The position numbers and the translations under genes are program-made. The notes beneath the pieces were generated by a model. It searched no databases. It was not told where the DNA came from and saw only the letters and a program-made list of their open reading frames with translations. A stretch of 64,000 bases of DNA. It comes from Patescibacteria group bacterium (lineage in GTDB: Bacteria; Patescibacteriota; UBA1384; XYA2-FULL-43-10; 1-14-0-10-43-13). This document shows, in pieces, positions 1 through 63,221 of the stretch. Positions within the stretch are counted from its first letter, which is position 1. Every line of letters starts with the position of its first letter. The DNA lies in contig JBAYVE010000004.1 in the NCBI GenBank assembly GCA_041674765.1, forward strand, positions 26,751-90,750. Reading direction: 5' to 3'.

Positions 1-300
<300 letters not shown>

Positions 301-455
301 AGTGGGGAAGGTAGAACGTAGAGCGGGGAACGTGGAACGTAGATTGGGAATGTAGAACGTAGAATGTAGATTGGGAACGTGGGAGGGGGAAGGTTGAGTG
401 TGGAGCGGGGAACGTAGAACGTGGAATGGGGGATAGAGAGCGTCAATAAGGAATA
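301..455. repeat. Purine-rich degenerate tandem repeat (units like GGAACGT / GTAGAACGT / GGAATGTAGAA)
   Basis: Direct reading: gtagaacgtagagcggggaacgtggaacgtagattgggaatgtagaacgtagaatgtagattgggaacgtggg...; related copy at 41621-41712. Confidence 0.8.
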
Positions 456-931: not shown

Positions 932-1226
932 GACAAGTTTACTGATGTTTTGTCCGAATGTAATGAGTACTTCTCACGCTCGAGCACCAAGCGTTCGAAG
1001 AATAAGTTATATATTTTTTAACTTGGTATCAGTTGCAATTGCTTTCATTGTATTGGGACTTTACTCGTGATAATATCTATTATGGCTGATGCCATTCTTT
1101 TAACTTAAAATTTAAAACGGAAAAGTTAAAACCATAATTTAAAAGGCAAAAATTTTCCGTGAGTTAAGTTTTACTGTTTTTGGGTTATGGTTTTTAGTTT
1201 TAACCTTTAATTTTTGAGTTATTATT

Positions 1227-4070
1227 ATGTCTTTACTCGATAAAATCTATAATCCCAGCCGTAGGGTGATAAGCTCCCTTCAGAGCCAGGTTGCGAAAAT
1301 CAACGCCTTTGAAAGCGAACTTAGCAAATTATCAGATGAGGCTTTGAAAGCCAAGACCTTGGAATTCAAAGAGAAGCTCGCTGATTTAGGCCGGCAGAAT
1401 GAAATCATAGAGGAGATCACACCCGAAGTTTTTGCGGTCATGAGAGAAGCGATGAAGCGTGTTTGGGGAGAACGCCATTTTGATGTCCAGCTGATCGGTG
1501 GATTGGTTCTTCATCAGGGTAAGATCGCCGAGATGAAAACCGGTGAAGGCAAAACGATTGTGGCTACTCTGCCCTTGTATCTGAATGCTCTGACCGGTCA
1601 GGGAGTCCACCTTGTGACTGTGAATGATTATCTTTCCCGCCATCAGGGAGAAGGAATGGGGGAAGTATTTCATTTTTTGGGTCTTTCTACCGGTATTATC
1701 CAGAGTAATCAGGAAACTTATCGTTTCGTTAAAAAACATAATTACAAACATTATTCGGAAAGTGAAGGCCTAAACTTAGAGCCTTGTTCGCGTAAGGATG
1801 CTTATGCTTGTGATGTCACTTATGGTACAAACAACGAATTTGGTTTTGACTATCTGCGCGATAACATGGCGCCGAGCGTTGAACTCTGCTCTCAGCGGAC
1901 GCTTAATTTTGCTATCGTTGATGAAGTGGACTCAATCCTGATCGATGAGGCTAGAACTCCGTTGATTATCTCGGCTCCGGCAGAGGAATCAACTGGCATG
2001 TATCAACAGTTCGCCTCACTCGTGCCACGGTTGAAAGAGGGAGAGGGATATATCGTCGATGAGAAGGACAAGGCAGTTTCGCTGACAGATAAGGGAATCG
2101 CCGAGATGGAAAAAATGCTTCATATAGACAATATTTATGAAGCCGGTGGTATCGCGATGGTTCATCACCTGGAGCAAGCCCTGAAGGCGCATGGTTTATT
2201 CAAAAAGGACCGTGATTATGTCGTCAAGGAAGGGGAAATTATTATCGTTGATGAGTTTACCGGCCGTTTGATGGTTGGCAGACGTTATTCGGAGGGACTC
2301 CATCAGGCAATTGAGGCGAAGGAAAATGTTGAAGTAAAAAGTGAGTCGCAGACCTTGGCTACAATCTCCTTCCAAAATTTATTTCGCATGTACGGAAAAT
2401 TGGCTGGTATGACCGGAACTGCCGCAACGGAAGCAGAGGAATTCTACAAAATTTACAAACTCGATGTTGTGGAAATTCCAACAAATAAATCAGTTGCCCG
2501 CAAGGATTTTCCTGATCAGATTTATAAAACGGTCGAAGCTAAGCTCGATGCGATTGTCAAAGATGTCAAAGAGAGAACCGAGAAGGGTCAGCCGATTTTG
2601 ATTGGTACTGTTTCTGTCGAAAGAAATGAGTTGCTGTCGAAAAGCTTGAAGAGGGCTGGCATCAAGCACGAAGTTTTGAACGCGAAGCAGCATGACCGTG
2701 AAGCCAAAATTATTGCCAAGGCAGGCCTCAAGGGCGCGGTGACTGTGGCAACAAATATGGCCGGACGCGGAACCGATATCAAATTGGGCGAAGGTGTCCG
2801 GGAAGTTGGAGGATTGCATGTTCTTGGTACTGAACGTCACGAGGCACGCCGTATTGACAATCAGCTCCGTGGCCGTTCCGGAAGGCAGGGCGATCCAGGG
2901 TCTTCTCAATTCTTTGTTTCGATGGAAGATGATCTAATGAGAATTTTTGGCGGCGAGCGGCTGAAGAATCTAATGAGTTCGTTGGGTCTGCCTGACGACA
3001 TGCCAGTCCAGAATGCGATGATTTCACGCTCAATTGAATCAGCCCAGAGAAGAGTTGAGGGATATAATTTCGACATTCGAAAACATCTCGTTGAATATGA
3101 TGATGTGATGAATAAGCATCGCGAGGTCATTTACAGGAAACGAAGAAGAATACTGGAATTAGAGGTCAACAACCAACAATCAACAACCAGCAACCAATCA
3201 AATTCCAATATTCAAAATCCAAATGACTATGAGACCATTGGACAGTCAGAGCCGACTGACCTGAGAAGCGAGATTCTCGAAATCATTGATGATGAGATTG
3301 AAGCAATAATCAATTTGAATATTGAAAACCCCGATAAGGCCAAATCGGAACTGACTGTAATGCTTGGTTCCCCGGTAGAGCTTTTGGATATGGAAAAACT
3401 AAAGGCTCAGGCAATAAGCCTTTATGAAGCTCGAGAAGAAAAGTTTGGGCCGGAAGTGATGCGTCAGATCGAGAAAGCGGTGTATCTAAGGACGATTGAT
3501 ATGCTTTGGGTCGAGCATCTGACAACGATGGACGAACTTCGAACCGGTATTGGACTTCAGGGTTACGGCCAGCGTGATCCTCTTATCGAATATAAGCAGG
3601 AAGCTTACCGTTTATTCGAAGGTCTACTCCGAAGCATTGAAAGTTCTGTGGCTAAAACAATTTTTCGCGTAGAAGTTTCTGCGCAACCCCAGCCGAGACC
3701 CATAGAAGAGAAAAAGCTGGAATATACTCAGCCTGATATTAGTGAAGTAGGCGGATTTGAGAATGACCTGCCCGCAGTCGCTAAAGCCCAGCTTTTGCAG
3801 GCGGGAAAAGAAGATCTGGCAGTTGCTCAGAAGATGCTTGCTATTCAGGCAGAGAGCCAAAAGCAAAAGGTTAAAAACGATGAGCTTTTAAAAAAATCAT
3901 TCGGTAAAGGCAGCAGCGTATATGACAGAATGAAGGAATCGAGTGCCTCAGGGCCTGCCTCTCAGGTCAGAAATAAATTATCAAAAGTCGGCAGAAACGA
4001 TCCCTGCCCATGCGGAGCGACTAAGGCAGACGGACGCCCGGTAAAGTACAAACATTGTCACGGGAAATAA
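1227..4070 (+). CDS. secA: preprotein translocase ATPase SecA
   Basis: 947 aa with DEAD-like motor motifs and C-terminal zinc-binding tail CPCGATKADGRPVKYKHCHGK; contains a low-complexity N/Q/S insert. Confidence 0.97.
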   Translation: MSLLDKIYNPSRRVISSLQSQVAKINAFESELSKLSDEALKAKTLEFKEKLADLGRQNEIIEEITPEVFAVMREAMKRVWGERHFDVQLIGGLVLHQGKIAEMKTGEGKTIVATLPLYLNALTGQGVHLVTVNDYLSRHQGEGMGEVFHFLGLSTGIIQSNQETYRFVKKHNYKHYSESEGLNLEPCSRKDAYACDVTYGTNNEFGFDYLRDNMAPSVELCSQRTLNFAIVDEVDSILIDEARTPLIISAPAEESTGMYQQFASLVPRLKEGEGYIVDEKDKAVSLTDKGIAEMEKMLHIDNIYEAGGIAMVHHLEQALKAHGLFKKDRDYVVKEGEIIIVDEFTGRLMVGRRYSEGLHQAIEAKENVEVKSESQTLATISFQNLFRMYGKLAGMTGTAATEAEEFYKIYKLDVVEIPTNKSVARKDFPDQIYKTVEAKLDAIVKDVKERTEKGQPILIGTVSVERNELLSKSLKRAGIKHEVLNAKQHDREAKIIAKAGLKGAVTVATNMAGRGTDIKLGEGVREVGGLHVLGTERHEARRIDNQLRGRSGRQGDPGSSQFFVSMEDDLMRIFGGERLKNLMSSLGLPDDMPVQNAMISRSIESAQRRVEGYNFDIRKHLVEYDDVMNKHREVIYRKRRRILELEVNNQQSTTSNQSNSNIQNPNDYETIGQSEPTDLRSEILEIIDDEIEAIINLNIENPDKAKSELTVMLGSPVELLDMEKLKAQAISLYEAREEKFGPEVMRQIEKAVYLRTIDMLWVEHLTTMDELRTGIGLQGYGQRDPLIEYKQEAYRLFEGLLRSIESSVAKTIFRVEVSAQPQPRPIEEKKLEYTQPDISEVGGFENDLPAVAKAQLLQAGKEDLAVAQKMLAIQAESQKQKVKNDELLKKSFGKGSSVYDRMKESSASGPASQVRNKLSKVGRNDPCPCGATKADGRPVKYKHCHGK

Positions 4071-4172: not shown

Positions 4173-4267
4173 CTACCTCACCTAGCCTCTCCTAAACTAG
4201 GAGAGGGATTAAACAGGATCATTGCAATTATTTCCCCTCCTGGATCAGGAGGGGTTAGGGGAGGTAG
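4173..4267. mobile_element. MITE-like hairpin repeat block (left copy) with ctacctc...gaggtag termini
   Basis: ctacctcacctagcctctcctaaactaggagagggat + second hairpin cccctcctggatcaggagggg; 37-bp core identical to 4630-4666. Confidence 0.7.
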
Positions 4268-4653
4268 TAAAAATAGAATATATTTTCAATAATAAAGATA
4301 GTGCTGATCTCAGGCGCAATCTTCGGAAGAATATGCCTATTACAGAAGTGGTTATTTGGCAGAGAATCAGGGCGGGCCAATTGGGTGGCTATAAGTTCAA
4401 AAGACAATATAGCGCCGCTAATTTTATTTTGGATTTTTACTGCCCATTAAAGAGACTAGCGATCGAGCTTGACGGTGAAAGCCATTATTTGGGCAACCAA
4501 AAAGAATACGATAAAGACAGAACTAAATATCTGAATTCGCTAAATATAAAGGTTGTTCGATTTACCAATAAAGAAGTGATGGAGAATATTGAGGGCGTGA
4601 TTGAGAGGATACTATCAATTTTAAATGAACCTACCTCACCTAGCCTCTCCTAA
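4222..4653 (+). CDS. DUF559 (Vsr/endonuclease-fold) domain protein
   Basis: LRRNLRKNMPITEVVIWQRIRAGQLGGYKFKRQ...ILDFYCP..LAIELDGESH...VVRFTNKEV matches the DUF559 signature. The ATG at 4222 lies inside the left repeat block, so the true start is uncertain. Confidence 0.75.
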   Translation: MQLFPLLDQEGLGEVVKIEYIFNNKDSADLRRNLRKNMPITEVVIWQRIRAGQLGGYKFKRQYSAANFILDFYCPLKRLAIELDGESHYLGNQKEYDKDRTKYLNSLNIKVVRFTNKEVMENIEGVIERILSILNEPTSPSLS

Positions 4654-4773
4654 ACTAGGAGAGGGATCAGAACGGGATCATCATGGCTACTTTCCCTTAT
4701 TTGATTAGGAGTGATTAGTAGGGCCATTGCAGCTACTTTTCCTTCTTCGATTAGGAGGGATTAAGGGAGGTAG
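4630..4773. mobile_element. MITE-like hairpin repeat block (right copy), direct repeat of 4173-4267 with a longer middle
   Basis: Same 37-bp core, shared ggatcat/attgca middle and terminal ...gggaggtag; overlaps the 3' end of the DUF559 ORF. Confidence 0.7.
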
Positions 4774-5544: not shown

Positions 5545-6100
5545 TTTTTCCTTTTCTTCCCCTCATTTTTAAGGAGGGGCTAGGGGTGGTTTATTTATTA
5601 ATTTTCAATTTTTAATTTAAATTTTTCTAATAACTATCAACGGATCAAATCTCTTCTAGCGTGTCATCCTCGGGACCGGCGGTGTTCTCTAGAGTGGTGC
5701 CTCATTCGAGTCTGCCTTCGATTCACACTCAGGCCCTGAGCCTGTCGAATGGGAGCCTGAGGGCTCTTCCCTCAGAGTCGAAGACCGGGGACCCAATTCC
5801 TTTTTTGCGGTGTCATCCTGAGGAACCGAAGGATCTCTGAACTTGTTTCAGGTGGCATTGACTTCGCATTCGCGAGGGATTCTTCGCCTCCTCAGAATGA
5901 CAGACTAATATGGTGTATAACTGATAGATTCTTCGCCTCCGAGAACATTGGCTCAGAATGACAGTTGTTATGGTGTATGTAATCACCATATGGTGATATT
6001 GACCACTCATTAACTTTATTATATACTTGCTCATCGTTCTTGTCAAGGCTTGCTTTGGTGAGAATGTTTTAAATATCAATCGAGCTCAAATTATGCTTTC
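5545..6100. repeat. Cluster of dispersed MITE-like repeats. Modules present: gtcatcctcgggacc; cctcagagtcgaagaccgggg; ctcagaatgacag; gattcttcgcctcc
   Basis: Modules recur at 20512-20740, 27545-27684, 30047-30225, 36294-36700, 40865-41000 and 45685-45960; no convincing ORF. Confidence 0.8.
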
Positions 6101-8949: not shown

Positions 8950-9060
8950 GTTGGTCATCTCGACATCCGCCTCTGGCGAGACGAGAGATCTTCATTTGAG
9001 TGTTTGATTCTGGATTCCCGCCTACGCGGGAATGACAGCAGAAGAGGCGGTACATCAATG
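8950..9060. repeat. MITE-like repeat (ggattcccgcctacgcgggaatgac hairpin plus companion module)
   Basis: One mismatch from the 24-bp hairpins at 52013-52036 and 52214-52237. Confidence 0.7.
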
Positions 9061-9943: not shown

Positions 9944-10124
9944 CGCTTCAAGCATCCAAGTTCCAAATTCCAAGAACCAATCAATGTCCAAATTTCAAAA
10001 GTTAAGTTCTTTTGATTTGGAATTTAGAATTTGAATGGATGCTAGAGATTGGGTGTTGGTTGTTATTCTGTTGCCAGAAGTTTCTGTTATAATGTTCTTG
10101 TTGAATTATCTCTTGGAGGTTTAT

Positions 10125-12583: not shown

Positions 12584-12587
12584 TTCA

Positions 12588-12700
12588 TCAAGTGCATAAA
12601 GCTAAAAGTTCATAAAGACTAAGGTTTGTAGAGTTAAAAGTTTGGAAAGTGCATAAGAACAAGAGTTCGTAAAGACTACTTTCCGTAGAGTCAGTCAGGA
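12588..12700. repeat. Two tandem ~55-bp units carrying the gtgcataaag/gttcataaagact motif
   Basis: gtgcataaagctaaaagttcataaagactaaggtttgtagagtta / gtgcataagaacaagagttcgtaaagactactttccgtagagtca; same motif at 18440, 23055 and inside prmC at 37640-37700. Confidence 0.65.
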
Positions 12701-12759
12701 AAATTTATATCATTTATTTTATTTATTACTTTGTTAATTTATTAAACTTCAGCTAGCTT

Positions 12760-18419: not shown

Positions 18420-18528
18420 TAGTACGATAAGACAGTTCATAAGGTAAAGTTTTTAAGGCAGTAAGGAGCTTCAACTGCTGGATGAATTTTCCAACTTTAT
18501 ATCTTGAAAAACTAAAAAAGGAGCAAAT

Positions 18529-20511: not shown

Positions 20512-20740
20512 TTCAGCTCCAAATGTCATCCTCGGGACCAATGGTGATCTTGGAAATGGTACCCGGGGATCCAATTCCTTATTTATATTAGAGGACAGGG
20601 GGCTCTTTCTCTTCGAGTCTGAGCGACGAGGTCGCTAGGCCTCAGAGTCGAAGACCGATGCCTGAATAATTCTATAAACCCCCTCTAGCTCCCCCTTGAG
20701 AAGGGGGAGAAAATAGTGTTTTGGTAAGATTCAATTGGAT
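20512..20740. repeat. MITE-like repeat cluster. Modules present: gtcatcctcgggacc; gaggacagggggctctttctcttcgagtctgag; cctcagagtcgaagaccg; ctcccccttgagaagggggag hairpin
   Basis: Modules shared with 5545-6100, 36430-36480 and 45790-45830. Confidence 0.8.
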
Positions 20741-20741
20741 A

Positions 20742-22939: not shown

Positions 22940-22980
22940 TTGTAATCTTCAGTTAGAGATTAGCGACAACGTCAACCTTT

Positions 22981-23014
22981 GCCCCGATGGTTTATTCCGT
23001 CGGGGCGCTTTTTC
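22981..23014 (+). terminator. intrinsic terminator
   Basis: gccccgatggtttattccgtcggggc followed by TTTTT. Confidence 0.75.
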
Positions 23015-23049
23015 TATTGAAGGAAGCAATATTAACGGTTAAAATCATA

Positions 23050-25223
<2,174 letters not shown>

Positions 25224-27544: not shown

Positions 27545-27684
27545 ATAATTGCCCCTTGGTTGTCATTTCGACTCCCTGATGTGTTGTCAGGGGCGGAGAA
27601 ATCTTTTGCGGCACAATGGCGTTAAGTCAGTCTAAAGATCTCTCGGCTGGCTACCGCCGCTCGAGATGACAGAAAAGAAAAACA
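27545..27684. repeat. MITE-like repeat (gtcatttcgactccctgatgtgttgtcagggg ... ctcgagatgacag)
   Basis: Near-copy at 36312-36350. Confidence 0.7.
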
Positions 27685-30046: not shown

Positions 30047-30225
30047 AGTTCCTTTGTCATTCCAGACTGTAAGCTTGATCCGCTAGCTAGCGGGCTGGAA
30101 TCCAGTTACCTGCACAAGCAAAGCAACTTCCTGGATTCCCGGATCATGGATCGCCCAACTATTAGATTTCAAAGGTTAAGGCTCATCCTGTCCGAGAATG
30201 ACAATACTTAATTTATGGGAAAGAT
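30047..30225. repeat. MITE-like repeat cluster (gtcattccagactgtaagcttgatccgctagctagcgggctggaatcc; ggattcccggatcatgg; gtcatcctgtccgagaatgac)
   Basis: Near-identical element at 40877-40930. Confidence 0.8.
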
Positions 30226-36293: not shown

Positions 36294-36700
36294 ACATTTT
36301 TTATTTTATTTGTTTGTCATTTCGACACCTCAATGTGTTGTCGAGGTTTATTCAGGATCAAATTCCTTGCTTCCTCACCTTCTCGAGGGGAGGCTAGGTG
36401 GGGTGTATAAAATATAACTCCATTTGTTATTTTCTTTTTTTGAGGACAAAGGGACTTATTCTCTTCGAGTCTGAGAGTCTTTGATGTTTCTTTTTATCGA
36501 ATTGATATTTGCTAAGCAAAGTAACTGATCATCCCCCCATCGTCATTCCGGACTGTAAGCTAGAGATCTGGAATCTATCGTTATAATAGATCCTGAAACA
36601 AGTTCAGGATGACAGAATGAGTGAGGAGTTACTAAGCTAACTATTGACAAAATATTAATAATATACTATAATATATATAGATATCTGGATCTGATGGTAT
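36294..36700. repeat. MITE-like repeat cluster. Modules present: gtcatttcgacacc...; cctcaccttctcgaggggagg hairpin; gaggacaaagggacttattctcttcgagtctgag; gtcattccggactgtaagctagagatctggaatc; gatcctgaaacaagttcaggatgacag
   Basis: No coding potential; several modules match other clusters. Confidence 0.8.
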
Positions 36701-36714
36701 GAGGAGCAAAACTA

Positions 36715-37092: not shown

Positions 37093-38103
37093 TTAATAGC
37101 TAGATAACGATATTGTAAGATAACGATCAAGACCTGCAAGGTCTTTTTTTAGTTCTATTTTTGCGGTTGGATAGTGATAGTGTGAAAATTTTTCTATCTC
37201 CATAGCATTTCTGGGATCAAGTTCAATTAAAATCGTACCATCTTCAGCAAGGTGGTTTCGGGCTTGCGCTAGAAATCGTTTGATTATCTCTGAACCATTG
37301 TCGTCGGCAAAGATTGCATTTTGGGGTTCAAACTTAACCGTATTATGTATTATGTATTTGGTATTATGAGTTTCCAGCTCATTGCTTAATACTTTATACT
37401 CACACTTTGATACCAGCTTCGGGACATACGGCAAGTTGGCGATAATAAGATCAAACCCGCCTGACGGCGAGGCAGGCTTTTTATGAAGTTGATGATTTTG
37501 GAATAAGTCAGAATGAATAAATTTAATCGTATTGTTCGAGCACAAGCGAGAACCAGCTTGGTTTGATAGTTCTCGGCCTCTGGCCTCGAACAATAACTTC
37601 TTTGCATTCTTCCTGGCCATTTTCAGGGCTTTTGCAGAAATATCGGAGGCGTATAAGTTTATAAAGTTGGAAAGTTCATAAAGTTCATCAAGTTTTTTGG
37701 CCAGTGAGATGATGAGGCAGCCGGAGCCGGTACCAAGGTCTAAAATTTTCAATTTACAATTTACAATTTTCAATTTTTTCTGAAGGACTTCAACCGCTTG
37801 TTCTACCAAAAATTCACTTTCGGGGCGGGGGATAAGGACATCGGGCGTTACCAGAAATTCGTACCCGAAAAATTCTTTTTTTCCGGTAAGATAGACAATC
37901 GGTACATTGTTTTGGCGTTTTTTCAACAATTTCTGGAATTTATTAATTTGGCTCTTTGACGGCTCGAACTCAGGATGGCTCAGAAGGAACGTCTTGTCTT
38001 TGCTAGTCGCGTATGACAAAAGAACCTGAACATCGAGTTCGGGAGAGGCACTTACCTCTTTGAGTTTGAGGACGGATTGAGAATATAGTTTCTTCAGGTT
38101 CAT
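37093..38103 (-). CDS. prmC: release-factor glutamine N5-methyltransferase PrmC/HemK, carrying repeat-derived in-frame insertions
   Basis: DLGTGSGC and NLPYVP (NPPY) motifs; located downstream of prfA; extra segments encoded by hairpin/repeat DNA (37440-37470, 37540-37600, 37640-37700, 37745-37790). Confidence 0.8.
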   Translation of the reverse strand: MNLKKLYSQSVLKLKEVSASPELDVQVLLSYATSKDKTFLLSHPEFEPSKSQINKFQKLLKKRQNNVPIVYLTGKKEFFGYEFLVTPDVLIPRPESEFLVEQAVEVLQKKLKIVNCKLKILDLGTGSGCLIISLAKKLDELYELSNFINLYASDISAKALKMARKNAKKLLFEARGRELSNQAGSRLCSNNTIKFIHSDLFQNHQLHKKPASPSGGFDLIIANLPYVPKLVSKCEYKVLSNELETHNTKYIIHNTVKFEPQNAIFADDNGSEIIKRFLAQARNHLAEDGTILIELDPRNAMEIEKFSHYHYPTAKIELKKDLAGLDRYLTISLSSY

Positions 38104-38171: not shown

Positions 38172-39239
38172 TTATGACTGTGCTGCCAGCTTCCTTGCTT
38201 GGTCTTCGGTCATAAGGGCGTTAACTATCGGCTCGATATCGCCATCCATAATATTTGGCAGAGAGTGCCAAGATTGATTTATTCTGTGATCGGTAACACG
38301 ATCTTGAGGGAAATTGTAAGTTCTAATTTTTTCAGAACGATCCCCTGTCCCGACCTGAGAAAGACGCAAGTCCTTTCTTTCTTTTTGCAGTCGTTCTTCT
38401 TCGGCGGCCAAAATTCTTGAGCGGAGAATACTCATTGCCTTGTCTTTGTTCTTCATTTGGCTTCGTTCATCCTGACACTGCACTACAATGCCGGTAGGGA
38501 GGTGAGTGATTCGGACAGCGGAATACGTTGTGTTCACAGATTGTCCGCCAGCTCCTCCTGAGCAGAAGGTATCGATGCGGAGGTCTTCAGTTTTTATATT
38601 TATATCGGCCTCTTCTGCCTCAGGCAAGACAGCGACAGTAACGGTGGAAGTGTGGACTCTCCCCTGTTTTTCCGTTTCCGGCGTACGCTGAACACGGTGA
38701 ACTCCGCTTTCATATTTCATCTTCGAATATACTTTTTGTCCGCTGACTTCAAATGTGACTGACTTTAATCCGCCAATTCCCGTTGTTTGAGATTCCAAAA
38801 TGTTTGCCCGCCAACCTTGACGTTCGGCGAAGCGGGTATAAAGGCGGAATAACTCGGCGGCGAATAATTCTGATTCGTCTCCGCCCGCTCCTGGCCTTAT
38901 TTCAATAATAGAGTTTTTTTCATCGTTCGGATCTTTTGGCAGGAGAGCCAATTCCAACTCTTTCTCCATCTTGTCTTTCTTGGGATTTAGTCGGTTTATT
39001 TCTTCGTGCGCCATCTCTCTGAGTTCTTCGTCGCTAGAACTGATCATCTCTTCGCTATCGGAGATATTCTTGAGTACGCTAAAATAAGAATTGATTAATT
39101 GTGCAAGATCATCAAGACTGGATTTCTCTCTTGCAATTTTAGTGAATTCTGCATTATTGGCTTGAATTTCAGGCCTCTCTAAGCTTGCTGAGAGTTCGTT
39201 GTATCTGTCTAAAATTTTTTGTAGTTTTTCTTTATTCAT
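38172..39239 (-). CDS. prfA: peptide chain release factor 1
   Basis: GGQ motif ([18 protein letters not shown]), PxT-like decoding region. Confidence 0.95.
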
Positions 39240-39284
39240 AATCTTTAAATGCTAAAGGTAAAATAACCGAAATAACGAAATCAT

Positions 39285-39322
39285 AGTTTTTAGTTGTTTA
39301 GTTTCTTTTCGCATTTAGCGTT
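39285..39322 (+). repeat. ribosomal-locus repeat copy A (ttagttgtttagtttcttttcgcatttagcg)
   Basis: Family also at 39862-39932, 40025-40093 and 40822-40860 (reverse orientation). Confidence 0.75.
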
Positions 39323-39415
39323 GTAATTAAAAAGCCAGCCTTTATCTCAATAATTATATTATAAAGATTTTGGGCCGACTTTAATACCCGCCTGCCGGCG
39401 AGGCAGGTAGAGTAG

Positions 39416-39700: not shown

Positions 39701-39861
39701 TTCAAAAACAGATTACTAATCATACAAATCTACAGATATCGAATTGTTACCGACTATTGGTAATCAATAATCCGTTAGTATTTGTTTTACTTGAATGATT
39801 CTATCACACTCTTGAACTTGAGTCAATAATATGATAAGATCGTACTTAGTTCAAGTTAATG

Positions 39862-39932
39862 CGAAAAACTAAAAGAAACGAAAGAACGAAATTTAGTTTT
39901 TTGTTGTTTAGTTTATTTTCGTATTTAGCTTT
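39862..39932 (+). repeat. ribosomal-locus repeat copy B (internally palindromic, about 70 nt)
   Basis: gcgaaaaactaaaagaaacgaaag...tttagttttttgttgtttagtttattttcgtatttagc. Confidence 0.75.
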
Positions 39933-40024
39933 AAAGGGGGAAGTCGACACATTCGTCTCAAATCTCTCTCCTTCCAAGGAGCCAGTCGAATGGATGAGGA
40001 TAATAAGAGAAAGTTCAGTTCAAC

Positions 40025-40093
40025 TCTAAAAACTAAAATAAACCAAATAGCGAAATTTAGTTTTTAGTTGTTTAGTTTATTTTCGTTTTTAGC
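40025..40093 (+). repeat. ribosomal-locus repeat copy C, 24 nt upstream of the rpsB start
   Basis: ctaaaaactaaaataaacc...tttagtttttagttgtttagtttattttcgtttttagc. Confidence 0.75.
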
Positions 40094-40116
40094 ATTATTT
40101 AGTAATAAGGATTTTT

Positions 40117-40821
40117 ATGAACCAGTTACCGAGTTTGAGAGAGATGCTTGACGCCGGTGTTCACTTCGGTCACAAGACCTCCAGATGGCACCCAAAAATG
40201 GCGCCTTACATTTACATTTCTAAATCTGGCGTCCACGTTATCAACTTGGAAGAGACAGAAGCGAAATTGAAAGAAGCAGTCGAATTCATCAGTCGTGAGG
40301 CTTCAGAAGGCAAAACTTTTATTTTTGTCGGGACCAAAAAGCAGTCCGGTGAAATTGTCAAAGAAGCTGCTGTTGAAGCGGGCATGCCTTATGTAAATGT
40401 TCGTTGGCTCGGTGGTACTATTACCAATTTTGAAGCTATCAAGAGCGCTGTCAAAAACTTTCAGAAACAAAAGGAAGAACTTGAAAAAAATAATGATCTG
40501 CCAAAGAGTGAACTCTCAAAACTTCGTAAAGAAGTTGCAAGAGGCGAAAAGTTTCTCGGCGGTTTAGTCGGTATGGACAGAAAGCCGGACGCGTTGATCC
40601 TTTTCGGTTCGTACGACGAGAAGATCGCACTCAGAGAAGCAAAAGGTATCAATATCCCCGTCGTCGCAGTTGTCGATACAAATGCTGATCCAAATGCTGT
40701 AGAGTATCCGATTCCTGCCAATGATGATGCCACAAAATCAGTAAAACTGATCGCAGACACTTTCGCTCGTGCTATCAAAGAAGCAAAAGCCAAGTCAGCC
40801 AAAGTAGCTGAAACAAAGTAA
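40117..40821 (+). CDS. rpsB: 30S ribosomal protein S2
   Basis: MLDAGVHFGHKTSRWHPKM N-terminus. Confidence 0.95.
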   Translation: MNQLPSLREMLDAGVHFGHKTSRWHPKMAPYIYISKSGVHVINLEETEAKLKEAVEFISREASEGKTFIFVGTKKQSGEIVKEAAVEAGMPYVNVRWLGGTITNFEAIKSAVKNFQKQKEELEKNNDLPKSELSKLRKEVARGEKFLGGLVGMDRKPDALILFGSYDEKIALREAKGINIPVVAVVDTNADPNAVEYPIPANDDATKSVKLIADTFARAIKEAKAKSAKVAETK

Positions 40822-40860
40822 CTAACGCTAAAAACGAAAAGAAACTAAACAACTAAGTAT
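40822..40860 (-). repeat. ribosomal-locus repeat copy D (inverted relative to A-C), immediately after the rpsB stop
   Basis: gctaaaaacgaaaagaaactaaacaactaa is the reverse complement of ttagttgtttagtttcttttcgtttttagc. Confidence 0.75.
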
Positions 40861-40864
40861 TACA

Positions 40865-41000
40865 TATTTCCCTCGTATGTCATTCCAGACTGTAAGCTCG
40901 ATCCGCCAGCTGGCGGACTGGAATCCAGGAAGTTTGGTCGTTATAATATAAAGTATTGGATTCCCGGATCATAGCGCTGTCTATCCGAGAATAACATTGG
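40865..41000. repeat. MITE-like repeat (gtcattccagactgtaagctcgatccgccagctggcggactggaatcc; ggattcccggatcatagcg; gagaataacat)
   Basis: Near-copy of 30055-30140. Confidence 0.8.
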
Positions 41001-41022: not shown

Positions 41023-41619
41023 ATGTCAAATATTACAGCAAAACAAATCGCAGATTTGAGAGCCAAAACAGGCATAGGAATGATGGAATGCAAGAACGCT
41101 CTTGTCGAGGCCGGCGGTAATGAAGAAAAAGCGATGGAAATCCTTCGCAAAAAAGGTGCAGCCAAGGCAGCTAAAAGATCCGAAAGGGAGACAAAAAACG
41201 GAATCATCGAATCATATATACATGCCGGTGGAAAAATCGGTGTAATGGTTGAAGTGCTCGCCGAGACAGATTTTGTCGCAAAAAACGAAGAGTTCAAAGA
41301 GTTTGCGCACGACGTTGCTCTTCATATCGCTGCGATGGCGCCGAAATTTGTTAGTCGTGACGAGGTCCCTGCAGAAGAAGTCGCAAAAGAAAGAGAAATC
41401 CTTCTCGAAGAAGTAAAAGCTTCTGGTAAGCCTGAGAATATTGCTGAAAAAATTGTAGAGGGCAGACTTTCAAAATTCTATAGTGAAATTTGTCTACTCG
41501 AACAATCTTTCGTCAAGAATCCGGACTTAACTATAAATGACCTTTTGAATGAAAAAATTTCTAAGATCGGCGAGAAAATCGTTATCTCAAGATTTTGTCG
41601 GTTTGAAATTGGAGCATAG
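41023..41619 (+). CDS. tsf: elongation factor Ts (short form)
   Basis: ITAKQIADLRAKTGIGMMECKNALVEAGG UBA-like N-terminus. Confidence 0.9.
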   Translation: MSNITAKQIADLRAKTGIGMMECKNALVEAGGNEEKAMEILRKKGAAKAAKRSERETKNGIIESYIHAGGKIGVMVEVLAETDFVAKNEEFKEFAHDVALHIAAMAPKFVSRDEVPAEEVAKEREILLEEVKASGKPENIAEKIVEGRLSKFYSEICLLEQSFVKNPDLTINDLLNEKISKIGEKIVISRFCRFEIGA

Positions 41620-41620
41620 A

Positions 41621-41712
41621 ATAGTGGAATGTAGAATGTGGAATGTAGAACGTGGAAGGGGGAACGTGGAATGGGCGATGGGGAACGGGGCAGAACGGGG
41701 GAAAGAATGGAA
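41621..41712. repeat. Purine-rich degenerate tandem repeat, second locus (ggaatgtagaatgtggaatgtagaacgtggaagggggaacgtggaatggg...)
   Basis: Shares ggaatgtagaacgtgga and gggaacgtggaatggg with 301-455. Confidence 0.8.
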
Positions 41713-41717
41713 GGGAT

Positions 41718-41776
41718 ACCGGCCGCATGAAGGTGCTGCCGGTTTTTTTAATCGCCCCATGGGGGTGGGGCGATTA
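41718..41776 (+). terminator. tandem hairpins: accggc..gccggt + T7, then atcgcccc..ggggcgat
   Basis: Read directly from the sequence. Confidence 0.7.
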
Positions 41777-41837
41777 AAATCCCAATAAATGGGGCAAAAA
41801 CCTTCCGCTCGGCGGAACTTTTTGGTATTGTCTAATT

Positions 41838-45680: not shown

Positions 45681-45684
45681 TGTC

Positions 45685-45960
45685 TTCCTGAACCGACGCC
45701 AGTCGTCCGTACTCGATGCGGGATCTGCATCTTGATTCAGAATCAAATTCATTTATTGTTCGAGCTTGTCGAGAACTATTTGCTGTTTTTTCTTCTCTTT
45801 GAGGACAAGGGGACTCATTCCGAAGTCGTCCCCCTATCCTCAAACACCAACCCCCTACACGGTATAGAGGTATTCTTCTCTTTTATAAAAAATTGAACTC
45901 CTTTTAGTCGCCCTTCGGGTAAGTAATTTTTTATGTAGGAGAAGAATTATCTGTATAAAA
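45685..45960. repeat. MITE-like repeat cluster (gggatctgcatcttgattcagaatc; gaggacaaggggactcattccgaagtcg; cccctacacgg...)
   Basis: Modules shared with 23115-23145, 36430-36480 and 20590-20640. Confidence 0.75.
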
Positions 45961-46017
45961 AAATATGCAGGGCCCCGAATTATCGGGGGCCCTGCATCGG
46001 TGCAGGAAAGCGGGGCA

Positions 46018-52004: not shown

Positions 52005-52245
52005 TCTGTATTGTCATTCCCGCGGAGGCGGGAATCTATACAATGTAAATTCCTTTTATGAAACTATATTATGTTTATATATTAGCGAGTGAAAAGAACG
52101 GAACTTTGTATATTGGTGTTACTTCTGATTCAAAGAAAAGGGTTTGGCAACACAAGAATAAATTGGTAGTGGGAAGATTTATATTTTAATATTTAAGGCA
52201 AAACAACTTCCTCGATTCCCGCCTCCGCGGGAATGACGGACAAGG
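52005..52245. mobile_element. Truncated GIY-YIG nuclease mini-element bracketed by perfect 24-bp inverted hairpin repeats
   Basis: gtcattcccgcggaggcgggaatc at 52013-52036 and its exact reverse complement at 52214-52237; internal ORF 52058-52189. Confidence 0.75.
52058..52189 (+). pseudogene. GIY-YIG nuclease N-terminal fragment (43 codons)
   Basis: MKLYYVYILASEKNGTLYIGVTSDSKKRVWQHKNK matches the GIY-YIG signature; ORF stops well short of a full domain. Confidence 0.7.
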
Positions 52246-59378: not shown

Positions 59379-60497
59379 ATGGAACTATTACAAGACGTTT
59401 CTTTGAGGGGAAAGAAGGTATTTCTCCGGGTTGATTTTAATGTACCTTTGGAAAAGGGTAAGATTTTAGATAACAACAGAATCAAGGCGGCTATTCCGAC
59501 TATTAGATTCCTAGCGGAAAGCCGGGCTATTATAATTATCGGAACTCATTGCGGCCGTCCGGAAGGAAAACCCAGTCCTGAAACTTCCGTGGCACTGATT
59601 GCCAAGGAATTAGAAAGAGTATTGAACCTAAAAGTTTTGATGGCAGAGGGTATTGTCGGAGAAAATATAAAAGGCGTAATAGATAGCTTACATCCAGGTC
59701 AAATTATCGTGCTAGAGAATCTTCGCTGGGACCCACGGGAGGAAGCCAACGACCCGGCATTTGCCAAAGAATTAGCCGGGTATGCTGATATATATGTCAA
59801 CGACGCTTTCGCAGTGTCTCATAGGGCAAATTCATCGGTTGATGCGATCACCAAATTTTTGCCAAGTTATGCCGGACTTTTGATGCAGTCAGAAATTACA
59901 AATCTGAGGCTCCTTTTGGAGAAGCCGGTTCGTCCCTTCGTTTTAATTGTCGGAGGCATAAAGGTGGCCGATAAAGCGGCGATGATCAAGAGGCTTGCCC
60001 CTCTAGCGGACAAAATTCTTGTCGGCGGCGGAGTGGCTAACACATTTTTGAAAGCAAGAGGCCAGGATATCGGGAAATCGGTTTTTGACGAGGAAATGAT
60101 TGCTGAGTGCAAAACAATGCTTGAAAAATTCGGTAGCAAGATTGTTTTGCCGGTAGACAGTGTTAGAGAAGATTTGGGAAGCGGCGAGTTTGGGATTATG
60201 GATATAGGACCGGAGACTAGAAAAATTTTTATTTCGGAAATATTGAATGCCAAGACAGTTTTGTGGAATGGCAATCTTGGCAAGAGCGAAGACGAAAAAT
60301 ATAGGGATGGTATGAGAGACGTAGCAATGGCGATGGCAAAAATTAGGCAGCACACCGTTGTGGCCGGAGGAGATACGGCCGCCTTTGTAATAGAAGAAAA
60401 ATTAAATAATGGCATTGCCTTCATTTCTACCGGCGGCGGCGCTGCCCTGGAATTTTTGGCAGGGGAGAAATTGCCTGGGATAGAAGCTCTACGATAA
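59379..60497 (+). CDS. pgk: phosphoglycerate kinase
   Basis: VFLRVDFNVPL N-terminus, 372 aa. Confidence 0.9.
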   Translation: MELLQDVSLRGKKVFLRVDFNVPLEKGKILDNNRIKAAIPTIRFLAESRAIIIIGTHCGRPEGKPSPETSVALIAKELERVLNLKVLMAEGIVGENIKGVIDSLHPGQIIVLENLRWDPREEANDPAFAKELAGYADIYVNDAFAVSHRANSSVDAITKFLPSYAGLLMQSEITNLRLLLEKPVRPFVLIVGGIKVADKAAMIKRLAPLADKILVGGGVANTFLKARGQDIGKSVFDEEMIAECKTMLEKFGSKIVLPVDSVREDLGSGEFGIMDIGPETRKIFISEILNAKTVLWNGNLGKSEDEKYRDGMRDVAMAMAKIRQHTVVAGGDTAAFVIEEKLNNGIAFISTGGGAALEFLAGEKLPGIEALR

Positions 60498-60526
60498 TTG
60501 CTATATTGCTTTATTGTTAGATTGTT

Positions 60527-60907
60527 ATGGAAACAAAAAAGTATCTACAACTTAATGACATTGAGGCATATAAAACAGCTTTTTCATTATCAAATTATGT
60601 TTGGGATAGGATAGTGGCTTGGGACCACTTCTCTAAGAGTACAATCGGTAATCAATTTGTCAGAGCAATCGATTCAATCTCGGCAAATATCGCTGAAGGA
60701 TTTGGCAGATACGGCAAGAAAGATAAAATCTGTTTCTATCGATATAGTTACGGATCAATCAAAGAGTCCCTTGATTGGAATGAGAAGGCAAAAGATAGGA
60801 AATTAATTTCCGAAGAAGAATACAGTCGTATCTTTGCAGATTTACAAAAACTGCCTAAATCTGTCAACTATCTCATCAAATTTACTAACGAAAAATTAAC
60901 AATATAA
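60527..60907 (+). CDS. four-helix-bundle protein (23S rRNA-IVS / Avd-like family), copy 2
   Basis: SISANIAEGFGRY..SYGSIKESLDW. Confidence 0.75.
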   Translation: METKKYLQLNDIEAYKTAFSLSNYVWDRIVAWDHFSKSTIGNQFVRAIDSISANIAEGFGRYGKKDKICFYRYSYGSIKESLDWNEKAKDRKLISEEEYSRIFADLQKLPKSVNYLIKFTNEKLTI

Positions 60908-60911
60908 CAAT

Positions 60912-61769
60912 ATGACAATACAACAATCGTCGCCTGATAAAACAGTCTTACAAGTCATAGACGTTAAGTCAGAGTTAATTAGAGCCAGACGTGAACATTA
61001 TGCAATCGGGGCTTTCAATACCAATAATCTCGAGGTGACGAAAGCAATCTGTCAGGCTGCCACCAAATTTGATGCGCCCATTTTGGTCCAGACAACACCA
61101 TCGGCGATCGAATATGCTGGATTAAGGCAGATTTTTGATATCATAACAACGGAAATTATAAACACCAAAATCAAGGCAGCAATTCATTTGGATCATGCCA
61201 AAGATTTTTCAATTATTTCTCATGCTATACGAGCCGGCTATCGGTCTATTATGTTTGATGGGTCAAAGTTGCCATACCGTGAAAACGTTCATTTAACATC
61301 GAAAGTGGTAAATTTTGCTCATAGCTATGGAGCGTCAGTGGAGGCCGAGATTGGTGTTATCTCTCATGAAGAGGGTGGGCATCTTTCTGGTAAAGCAGAA
61401 TTGAGCTCACCTTTGCAGGTCAAGGAATTTGTCAAACTGACCGGAGTTGATTCCATTGCAGTCTCAGTTGGGAATGAACATGGCGCTCCAAAGGGCGAAC
61501 ATGTTGATTTCAATCTGTTGGAGAAAATTTCTTTAGCAGTGGATATTCCTCTAGTCATGCACGGAGCCTCCGGTTTGACGGCAGGAGACATCCGGGAGGC
61601 GATCTCCTTTGGCGTCGCCAAGTTCAATATCGACACTAAAATCAAGAAGGTTTTTACCCATGAACTCGAAACCTCCGAAGCTTCCGATTATCGAGATGCG
61701 ATGAAGGAGGGAATGGCGGAAGTGGAAAAAGTCGTTGAGAATTATATAAAGCTTTTTTCAAATAACTGA
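60912..61769 (+). CDS. fba: class II fructose-bisphosphate aldolase
   Basis: IHLDHAKDF, MHGASG. Confidence 0.85.
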   Translation: MTIQQSSPDKTVLQVIDVKSELIRARREHYAIGAFNTNNLEVTKAICQAATKFDAPILVQTTPSAIEYAGLRQIFDIITTEIINTKIKAAIHLDHAKDFSIISHAIRAGYRSIMFDGSKLPYRENVHLTSKVVNFAHSYGASVEAEIGVISHEEGGHLSGKAELSSPLQVKEFVKLTGVDSIAVSVGNEHGAPKGEHVDFNLLEKISLAVDIPLVMHGASGLTAGDIREAISFGVAKFNIDTKIKKVFTHELETSEASDYRDAMKEGMAEVEKVVENYIKLFSNN

Positions 61770-61847
61770 TTGCAAATCACAAATAACAATTACCAAATTA
61801 CAAATAAATCACAAATCTAAAATCACGAATCTAACACAAACGAACAG

Positions 61848-62198
61848 ATGGCTAATTCTGAAAAAATATATGATCTTGAGGAAAGGACTTTTATATTTGC
61901 TAGGAATACGGTTATTCTCATTAAAAAACTACCTAAAACAATATCAAATATCGAATATGGCAAACAAGTAATCCGGTCTTCCGCTTCAACAGGCGCAAAC
62001 TATATTGAAGCGAATGAAGCTTTGGGTAAGAAAGATTTCCTTATGAGGATTAAAATCTCCCGCAAAGAAGCGAAGGAATCGGCTTTCTGGTTTAGGCTTC
62101 TGAAAGAAACCAATTCAAATTTTGCTCAAGAGCTAGAATCATTACTGAATGAGGCTACTGAGTTGAAAAAAATATTTTCATCAATGCTTGGAAATTGA
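61848..62198 (+). CDS. four-helix-bundle protein (23S rRNA-IVS / Avd-like family), copy 3
   Basis: STGANYIEANEALGKKDF..SRKEAKESAFWF. Confidence 0.75.
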   Translation: MANSEKIYDLEERTFIFARNTVILIKKLPKTISNIEYGKQVIRSSASTGANYIEANEALGKKDFLMRIKISRKEAKESAFWFRLLKETNSNFAQELESLLNEATELKKIFSSMLGN

Positions 62199-62258
62199 TA
62201 TACTTTGGGAGTTGTTATTTATTTGTAATTTGGTATTTGGGATTTGGAGTTTAGAAAT

Positions 62259-63221
62259 ATGCAGCATGATGTTGTTACAATCGGAGATGCTTTCGAAGAT
62301 GTTTTTGTCCAACCTGACTTGAAGGTAAATTCGGATAGATCCTTTGGCTCCGGTAAGGGGATCTGCTTCGAATTTGGTGAGAAAATTCCTCTAAATTTTG
62401 TCCAGTATGAAATTGGAGGCTCTGCATGCAATATTGCTGTTGGTCTCTCGAGGCTAGGATATAAAACTACTTTTGTAACAGCGCTTGGCAAGGATACGCC
62501 AGCTCAAAGAATCATCCGGCAGCTGGAAGATGAGGGAGTTGATACCAAAAATGTCATTGAAAAATCAGATATTCAAACCGGTTTTTCGGTGGTATTTTCT
62601 GTCGACGGTGAGCGGACGATTTTTTCATATCATGCACTAAAAGATTATTCCAAATTGAAGATCAAAGATAGCCTCAAATCAAAATGGCTTTTTGTCACTT
62701 CTCTTGGGGAAAATATTGGTGAGATCGAGAAAAGGATAATTGCTGAAGTTTCAGAGGAGGGGTCTCTTTTTGCCTGGAATCCGGGATCCATTCAGATTGC
62801 CAGAGGTGCCAGTCATTATCGTCATCTGCTTCGTTGCACTTCGATCTTATTCCTGAACCGTGAGGAGGCAATAAAATTTCTGGATTATCCGGCAAGACCT
62901 ATCATCGAAGAGGTGATGAAGAAATTGCATAATTTTGGTGCAAGAATTGTTGTGGTGACCAACGGCAAGGAAGGGGCCAGGGCCTATGATGGCCAGGAAT
63001 TTTATGAGATGTCAGCGATTCAGAGAACTGAGCGTATAGATGCTACGGGTGCCGGAGATGCTTTCGCAACAGGATTTCTAGGTAGATTGATCGATGAAGA
63101 TTGGAAAAAAGATATTGATTCCGACATCATAAAAAATGCTTTGAAATGGGGGATTGCGAACTCGAACTCCGTGATCCAGCACATAGGGGCGCAAAAAGGG
63201 CTGCTTGCAGAGATTGATTGA
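62259..63221 (+). CDS. PfkB-family carbohydrate kinase
   Basis: GGSACNIAVGLSRLG, DATGAGDAF. Confidence 0.8.
   Translation: MQHDVVTIGDAFEDVFVQPDLKVNSDRSFGSGKGICFEFGEKIPLNFVQYEIGGSACNIAVGLSRLGYKTTFVTALGKDTPAQRIIRQLEDEGVDTKNVIEKSDIQTGFSVVFSVDGERTIFSYHALKDYSKLKIKDSLKSKWLFVTSLGENIGEIEKRIIAEVSEEGSLFAWNPGSIQIARGASHYRHLLRCTSILFLNREEAIKFLDYPARPIIEEVMKKLHNFGARIVVVTNGKEGARAYDGQEFYEMSAIQRTERIDATGAGDAFATGFLGRLIDEDWKKDIDSDIIKNALKWGIANSNSVIQHIGAQKGLLAEID

Follow-up and report, generated by a model that had tools for sequence, protein, structure and literature searches.

Decayed heptanucleotide arrays between stop codon and terminator of serS and tsf in a Patescibacteria genome, a likely product of old slippage

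Why should a small bacterial genome carry two long, purine-rich repeats directly behind the stop codons of serS and tsf, and do they do anything there? The two regions lie in the 64-kb stretch of DNA analysed here, which we call the window, and belong to a small-genome Patescibacteria MAG. A sequence-only reading had likened their multiple spaced GGA motifs to protein-sponge RNAs of the CsrB/RsmZ type and had offered slippage-prone simple repeats as the alternative. At positions 301–455 (array 1) and 41621–41712 (array 2), degenerate copies of the heptamer RGAAYGT follow one another head to tail. They likely represent a pair of old slippage-born heptanucleotide arrays that are carried passively between stop codon and terminator.

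That both regions are imperfect, purine-rich tandem arrays, as had been claimed, is borne out by Tandem Repeats Finder (TRF), by a pattern test and by base composition alike. Array 1 was reported by TRF with a period of 7 at 306–426 (17.6 copies, 67 % matches) and with a period of 21 at 297–431, array 2 with a period of 14 at 41617–41673 (86 % matches) and with a period of 7 in two adjoining stretches, 41617–41650 (4.7 copies) and 41648–41690 (6.1 copies); parsing gave 17 units for the former and nine for the latter. When up to two mismatches were allowed, GGAAYGTRGAAYGT had 15 matches as compared to 2.3 ± 1.6 in shuffles, and 13 of them fall inside the two arrays; the remaining two constitute an inverted pair (9958–10032). 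A per-position table of the units shows that G2, A3, and G6 of the consensus are nearly invariant and that positions 1, 5, and 7 are variable, with G at positions 2 and 6 being fully invariant in array 1. The base counts are G69 A49 T26 C11 in array 1 (76 % purine, 7 % C) and G42 A31 T13 C6 in array 2 (79 % purine, about 7 % C), that is, a G-rich sense strand with 45 % G, paired to a complementary strand with 45 % C and 7 % G. The 5′ part of array 2 is well preserved (GTGGAAT/GTAGAAT) and its 3′ part is degenerate and enriched in G. A repeat search joined both arrays in one direct-repeat family (D1), and the longest exact strings that they have in common measure 14 nt (GAACGTGGAATGGG and GGAATGTAGAACGT); the 17-mer ggaatgtagaacgtgga and the 16-mer gggaacgtggaatggg, previously quoted as shared, occur in array 2 only.

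The window opens with the 3′ end of serS (1–300; Pfam tRNA-synt_2b), followed by hpf and secA, and tsf (41023–41619; Pfam EF_TS) is located between rpsB and pyrH. Array 1 occupies the serS–hpf spacer and array 2 the tsf–pyrH spacer, both of them non-coding, and the placement directly between a stop codon and an intrinsic terminator had been correctly recognized at both loci (Table 1). We infer that the arrays are probably co-transcribed with the preceding genes, in whose 3′ UTRs they would form a C-poor section without predicted structure.

Table 1. Coordinates of the two arrays, of the signals around them, and of further heptamer arrays in the window.
Feature	Position	Strand	Remarks and basis
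serS stop codon TAG	298–300	+	in register with GTAGA of the first repeat units
Array 1	301–455	+	about 17 degenerate RGAAYGT units; repeat core 297–434
Terminator-like hairpin and T-run, 3′ of array 1	455–490 (hairpin 455–483)	+	terminator scan, centroid fold
TTTTGGG-like heptamer array	1178–1220		period scan
AATTTTC-like heptamer array	5591–5625		period scan
TCCAAGT/TCCAAAT (complement of GGAATTT/GGAACTT; 9955–9980) facing GGAATTTAGAATTT (10019–10032)	9955–10032	.	RGAAYGT-related
Heptamer array GTATTAT (on +) within prmC	37340–37400	-	period scan, protein alignment
AT-rich heptamer arrays AATTTTC/TTTTAAA	38109–38173	.	fill the prfA–prmC spacer; TRF, period scan
tsf stop codon TAG	41617–41619	+	in register with the repeat
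Array 2	41621–41712	+	about 10–13 units, same RGAAYGT family as array 1
Sole canonical G4 motif (G3+N1-7 x4) in the 64-kb window	41673–41701	+	regex, both strands
Intrinsic terminator hairpin CCGGCCGC...GCTGCCGG, then T7	41719–41749 (hairpin 41719–41742)	+	RNA fold
Two further hairpins after the array 2 terminator	41750–41779, 41803–41822	+	fold; terminator scan for 41803–41822
Heptamer array CAAATCA/CAAATAA	61773–61831	+	intergenic, family unlike RGAAYGT; TRF, period scan
Heptamer array TATTTGG	62205–62255	+	inverted partner of 61773–61831; TRF, period scan

Translation of the repeats would be the simplest reason for their presence, and an ORF on the minus strand across array 1 (190–522) as well as an ORF over array 2 are indeed open; for the latter, an automatic pipeline even called a 54-aa gene (41624–41788, plus strand) in two contigs (L001 and L002). 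However, the contig annotation has no gene call over array 1, where all three plus-strand frames contain stop codons, and Pfam returned no match for either of the spanning ORFs. With 67 % matches at a period of 7 nt and 70 % at 21 nt, the longer period was judged no better, and as a 7-nt periodicity uses all three frames in turn, it cannot be reconciled with selection on a peptide. ORF 190–522 on the minus strand is open for the simple reason that A and G are scarce there, and it extends over both the 3′ end of serS and the terminator. The sequence is moreover absent from the spacers of relatives, whose serS–hpf spacers of 14–135 nt are too short for such a gene. That either ORF encodes a real small protein is scarcely conceivable on these grounds, and the earlier verdict that the spanning ORFs are unlikely genes stands on the 7-nt period, the lack of Pfam matches and the absence in relatives; its assignment of both to the reverse strand does not, the ORF within 41549–41788 being on the plus strand. 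The calls over the repeats should be flagged as spurious, and the 54-aa 'gene' over array 2 is already in public data.

GGA occurs 12 times in the 155 nt of array 1 and eight times in the 92 nt of array 2. The arrays therefore invite interpretation as a sponge of the CsrA/RsmA type, or as a CsrA-regulated 3′ UTR, that titrates a GGA-binding protein, and they do share with CsrB, CsrC, and RsmX/Y/Z the presence of several GGA in a purine-rich RNA ending at an intrinsic terminator. These counts, however, equal the expectation from mononucleotide composition (9.7 ± 2.2 for array 1 and 6.4 ± 1.7 for array 2), and the CsrA-preferred context ANGGA is under-represented (one occurrence vs 3.0 expected in array 1, one vs 2.1 in array 2). 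Within the arrays, neither MFE nor centroid folds contain a hairpin with GGA in its loop, the only stable elements being the terminators; for the region of array 1, predicted folding is at the level of shuffles (z = −0.4), and the z of −2.8 obtained for the region of array 2 is due to the terminator hairpins. Rfam gave no match at the gathering threshold across the whole window, and in E-value mode on both regions the sole Csr match was to CsrC, on the terminator hairpin, with 6.7 bits as compared to a cut-off of 61 bits. A scan for tRNA and tmRNA found none. A gene for CsrA, for which the sequence-only reading had advised a search, had no match in the 64-kb window by tblastn, and Hfq, CspA, HutP, and TRAP returned noise only, all with approximate queries. 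The arrays also begin at a stop codon and not at a promoter, and they are not conserved in relatives. In sum, they differ from the known sponges in lacking GGA stem-loops, a promoter of their own, a covariance-model match, GGA enrichment, and conservation; the proposal is largely refuted already and retains hardly any probability, which removes a tempting but wrong annotation as sRNA sponge.

The unit length of 7 nt proved to be a property of the surroundings as well. A self-similarity scan over shifts of 1–24 nt, with a soft mismatch penalty and Markov shuffles as background, identified 7 as the one strongly over-represented period of the window (12 arrays vs 0.3 in shuffles); periods 14 and 21 are raised along with it, and all others stay near background except for a few multiples of 3 within genes. 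Nine of these 12 arrays are intergenic, although intergenic sequence accounts for 11 % of the window. The units of the other arrays (CAAATCA, TATTTGG, AATTTTC-like, TTTTGGG-like) are mutually unrelated, and the RGAAYGT-related inverted pair listed in Table 1 lies in the spacer after a phosphoesterase gene. Two arrays stand in frame within prmC: the first coincides, in a protein alignment, with a 13-residue insertion (ETHNTKYIIHNTV) relative to the Berkelbacteria orthologues, the second is found at 37744–37777, and the PrmC encoded here comprises 336 aa as compared to 290–301 aa in relatives. Since such in-frame arrays add residues, they point to a process at the DNA level. This genome generates or tolerates 7-nt arrays wherever the sequence is dispensable. 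A similar picture emerged from 447 kb of SerS-homologue loci, chosen regardless of repeats and most of them 41–52 % identical, which contain 23 period-7 arrays vs 2 in shuffles; multiples of 3 aside, no periods other than 7 and 14 are strongly raised. RGAAYGT itself forms only two arrays in 73 kb, and a complementary (ACRTTCY)n partner was found neither in the window nor in 9.4 kb further upstream. As the window displays heptamer arrays that are solitary, adjacent and inverted, or flanking a gene, it could frame experiments on why period 7 is favoured. Apart from this, secA carries a CAACAAC array at 3167–3196.

The window forms part of a 92-kb ENA metagenome contig, and NCBI assigns its Tsf to a Patescibacteria MAG, which is close to Berkelbacteria. 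The nearest other Tsf proteins are 79–81 % identical, some of them from organisms named Candidatus Berkelbacteria, and no strain closer than 81 % Tsf identity was present in the collections searched. In six contigs of these relatives, the terminator follows directly after the tsf stop in a tsf–pyrH spacer whose further contents include a small ORF for a membrane protein on the minus strand and, in 1–4 copies, an element of ~190 nt, and in none of the six does this spacer contain the purine heptamer array. For serS, a relative with 79 % identity has a different gene downstream, relatives with 76 % have a serS–hpf spacer of ~125 nt without an array in one case and of 14 nt in another, and a relative with 68 % has a spacer of ~135 nt with a different heptamer array, AAATTCC. 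As orthologous spacers thus lack the arrays, these are lineage-specific and labile. Within the lineage itself, the sequence is identical across the arrays in the only other contigs that encode identical Tsf or HPF, and the ENA and Logan assemblies, which may derive from the same reads, agree over both arrays. A change in unit steps was found in a more distant relative, of which two otherwise near-identical metagenome contigs (L179 and L180) carry a perfect (ACGAATC)n array directly upstream of serS (2903–2983 vs 2931–2982, respectively). Their difference amounts to exactly 28 nt, or four units, with flanks that differ by one base, and could in principle be an assembly artefact.

Taken together, the period-7 excess, the diversity of the units, the non-conserved spacers, and the 28-nt unit-step difference favour the slippage-prone simple repeats that had been named only as the alternative. 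Most likely, slipped-strand mispairing in steps of 7 nt would have created the arrays in a dispensable spacer between stop codon and terminator, and subsequent decay by point mutation would have reduced the identity of the units to ~67–85 %. We further infer neutrality, that is, the arrays would have no sequence-specific regulatory role and would at most increase the distance from stop codon to terminator. Some use of this spacing is possible, given that 155 + 92 nt of decayed repeat persist in a genome that is nevertheless compact (89 % coding).

Such repeats have precedents. Among the tandem repeats between prokaryotic genes, heptamers have already been described as the most abundant kind, and a survey is given by Mori et al. 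2019 (PMC6344855). For long simple sequence repeats (SSRs), PMC4692102 and PMC4679880 refer to Mrazek et al. 2007. Earlier work cited in the same two papers noted that heptamer repeats are over-represented and proposed that ~7 nt correspond to the length in contact with DNA polymerase, which would favour slippage. Genome-specific families include GGGAATC in Xanthomonas and GGGGAYT in Nostoc (PMC4692102), TAACTGA in Beggiatoaceae (PMC4679880), and the cyanobacterial tandem heptanucleotides. The present arrays resemble the prokaryotic intergenic heptanucleotide SSRs in their head-to-tail 7-nt units, their intergenic position, the over-representation of period 7, and the variation among relatives, but they are strongly decayed instead of perfect and their host is a small-genome Patescibacteria MAG; the richest genomes of the long-SSR survey, as far as its content is relayed, are those of Burkholderia, Cyanobacteria, Actinobacteria, and Xanthomonas. 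With Xanthomonas GGGAATC and Nostoc GGGGAYT (Rehm et al. 2015, PMC4692102) they have in common a G-rich family at several intergenic loci per genome, the occasional occurrence as inverted pairs, and a length and sequence that vary between related species, whereas the G3–G4 tracts of those units, for which G-quadruplexes were proposed, have no counterpart in RGAAYGT with its GG only. TAACTGA of marine Beggiatoaceae, Cyanobacteria, and some Bacteroidetes (MacGregor 2015, PMC4679880) and the cyanobacterial STRR are comparable in that one family occupies many intergenic sites, and TAACTGA also in that the heptamer is found in distant phyla without an evident mechanism of transfer; its sets, however, comprise 2–6 units mostly just upstream of start codons, as compared to 10–17 units just 3′ of stops in the present case. 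The arrays thus fit the known heptamer class in every testable feature and differ only in unit, decay, and host lineage. A compact Patescibacteria genome is thereby added to the hosts of intergenic heptamer repeats, but the finding alone matters little, and the question 'why seven?' is not made more testable by this instance.

One aspect would not have been predicted from independent local slippage. The two arrays are 41 kb apart and yet belong to the same unit family, have the same orientation (the purine, G-rich strand being the sense strand), and keep the same register to the TAG stop, which hints at family-specific spread, gene conversion, or selection and leaves a small residual chance for a sequence-specific role or a family-specific spread. 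Conceivably, the arrays could serve as a platform for a protein that binds single-stranded RNA or DNA and reads it in steps of 7 nt, either of the OB-fold/cold-shock type or a HutP-like reader of NAG-N4, in which case the bound protein would modulate the adjacent terminator or mRNA stability and RGAAYGT would be a genome-specific functional family. The occurrence of one family at two loci in one orientation, both times abutting stop and terminator, would suit such a function, as would the contrast between the almost invariant and the variable unit positions and a UAG-N4-UAG-N4-UAG string in array 1 (353–369). We take the spacing of this string to be the one known for HutP sites. These consist of two sets of three NAG triplets with 4-nt spacing, upstream of or over a terminator; array 1 has one such set and lacks a second clean one. 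None of Csp, HutP, TRAP, Hfq, and CsrA was detected in the window by tblastn with the approximate queries, the arrays are not conserved in relatives, and the 73 kb contain no more than these two arrays and no complementary one.

Families of this kind do occur at many loci elsewhere (Prevotella RUG383, Xanthomonas GGGAATC, Beggiatoa TAACTGA), and CspB binds heptamer repeats with one protein per heptamer (PMC4679880), both of which count in favour of a platform. For RGAAYGT, GGAAYGTRGAAYGTRGAAYG was searched for in a single genome of each species, which gave more than 119 loci as compared to a calculated chance expectation of ~35. The matches listed come from Prevotella, Planctomycetota, Chloroflexota, Acidobacteriota, Gemmatimonadota, cyanobacteria, and several Patescibacteria lineages, and among them the arrays are intergenic, often have many units, and often start a few bases from a stop codon; in Prevotella RUG383, one heptamer family was present at no fewer than six loci among these matches. 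An inverted partner lies within 200 nt in 25 of the 125 listed RGAAYGT arrays, so that a hairpin would form. Counted over the intergenic classes only, as crude ORF calling wrongly places arrays 'inside gene' where the GC content is high, the 125 listed arrays include 27 purine-sense and 16 pyrimidine-sense cases in co-directional contexts, and 22 convergent vs 8 divergent contexts. These splits indicate that gene 3′ ends are preferred and that the orientation to transcription is not fixed, the latter of which argues against such a platform. In viral contigs, (GGAATGT)3 was found in 2 loci and three composition-matched scrambles in 4, 15, and 11 loci. RGAAYGT as a special cross-phylum motif was accordingly rejected; with scrambles at least as frequent in these contigs, its recurrence reflects the general abundance of heptamer arrays. 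A unit no commoner than its scrambles speaks against the binding platform, too, which we consider unlikely in view of all these points.

The G-richness of the sense strand raises the possibility of G-quadruplex 3′-UTR elements that, in analogy to the Xanthomonas and Nostoc repeats, affect termination or RNA stability, the more so as the sole canonical motif of the window falls into array 2 and G-rich heptamer repeats have been studied as quadruplex formers (PMC4692102). The consensus unit, however, offers only GG, so that regular units cannot give G3 tracts, and array 1 is devoid of any canonical motif. The motif in array 2 is situated in its most decayed part and looks incidental, and quadruplex elements are a very unlikely explanation for the arrays. 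Conversely, the complementary strand might load Rho in the manner of a rut site and thereby stop antisense transcripts that enter from downstream, or the array might insulate neighbouring units. Rut sites follow a general C>G rule, with which the composition of the minus strand agrees, and the arrays are located at boundaries of transcription units; yet the downstream genes are co-directional, so that no antisense promoter is expected, and the other heptamer arrays of the window differ greatly in composition, which renders either role highly improbable. Triplex or H-DNA formation was rejected in view of the T and C that interrupt the tracts, and an SD-like ribosome trap was rejected with one GGAGG-like site only.

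A last and more far-reaching proposal, to which we attach a quite low probability, is that the 7–8-nt arrays form a modular toolkit for RNA structure in this lineage, with inverted pairs as long stems around cassettes and solitary arrays such as the RGAAYGT tracts as functional half-sites, through which one shared factor would influence how the 3′ ends of serS and tsf are formed. If this were true, the arms that bracket two genes for 23S-rRNA-IVS proteins as well as rpsB would perhaps be RNase III sites, and the half-sites might either bind a protein that reads every 7 nt or base-pair in trans to complementary arrays at other places in the genome. Passively carried, decayed slippage products remain our preferred interpretation of arrays 1 and 2.

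The arms themselves merit description in their own right. Two PF05635 ('23S rRNA intervening-sequence protein') genes at 60527–60907 and 61848–62198 lie among the glycolytic genes pgk, fba, and pfkB, each bracketed by inverted arms of short tandem repeats (60497–60927 and 61773–62255, respectively). The arms are (ATTGCTAT)n/(TAACAATA)n for the first gene and (CAAATMA)n/(TATTTGG)n for the second, where they extend over 43 nt with 84 % complementarity, and an RNA fold of 61765–62260 closes the long-range stem (z = −4.0). By analogy, the architecture resembles an rRNA intervening sequence set in an mRNA spacer. The same arrangement of arms recurs in another phylum, namely in a Flavobacteriales MAG (contig L117, 7240–7930) with (GGAATGT)n, a 121-aa ORF, and an inverted (ACATTCY)n arm ~620 nt downstream; by eye, we take this ORF to be of the IVS-protein/four-helix-bundle type. 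A Moraniibacteriota MAG (contig L052, reverse, about 2218–2620) carries (GGAACGT)4 and, 365 nt downstream, its inverted copy, both within one ORF, which by eye presumably resembles miaA and would then place the repeat arms in coding sequence. The gene rpsB is bracketed by 47-nt arms with 85 % complementarity, T-rich upstream (40055–40101) and A-rich downstream (40819–40865), which could pair the 5′ and 3′ UTRs, and a related AT-rich hairpin element of 86 nt is present in three copies around rpmE and rpsB (39238–39323, 39848–39933, and 40012–40097).

Further dispersed elements were encountered in the window and its relatives. Of the ~190-nt element (TGTCAAAGGACAGGGGACTCGTTCCGATGTCGTCCCC...) of the tsf–pyrH spacers, one Berkelbacteria contig (L124, 1950–2882) has four copies in tandem and another (L125, 2324–2698) a single copy, although both encode identical Tsf, and pieces related to it occur in the window spacers 45681–46017, 36294–36714, and 20512–20741. 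The element has no Rfam match at the gathering threshold; a MITE is one possibility, an unclassified structured RNA another. Palindromic elements of the form GTCATTCC...GGAATGAC, which look MITE- or REP-like, are scattered over 9010–9037, 52012–52036, 52211–52237, 30050–30105, 40873–40928, 27556–27588, and 36310–36342, and comprise, at 52013–52237, a perfect inverted pair of 24 nt with a spacing of 177 nt. The motif AAGTTCATAAAG / AAGTGCATAAAG recurs in spacers upstream of genes (12584–12759, 18420–18528, 22940–23189, and 37655–37694) and may be a shared regulatory or promoter-associated site. Finally, a perfect 37-nt direct repeat, CTACCTCACCTAGCCTCTCCTAAACTAGGAGAGGGAT, at 4173–4209 and 4631–4667 flanks a 143-aa gene of the DUF559/MTES_1575 family (4222–4653) and looks like a duplication at an insertion site.
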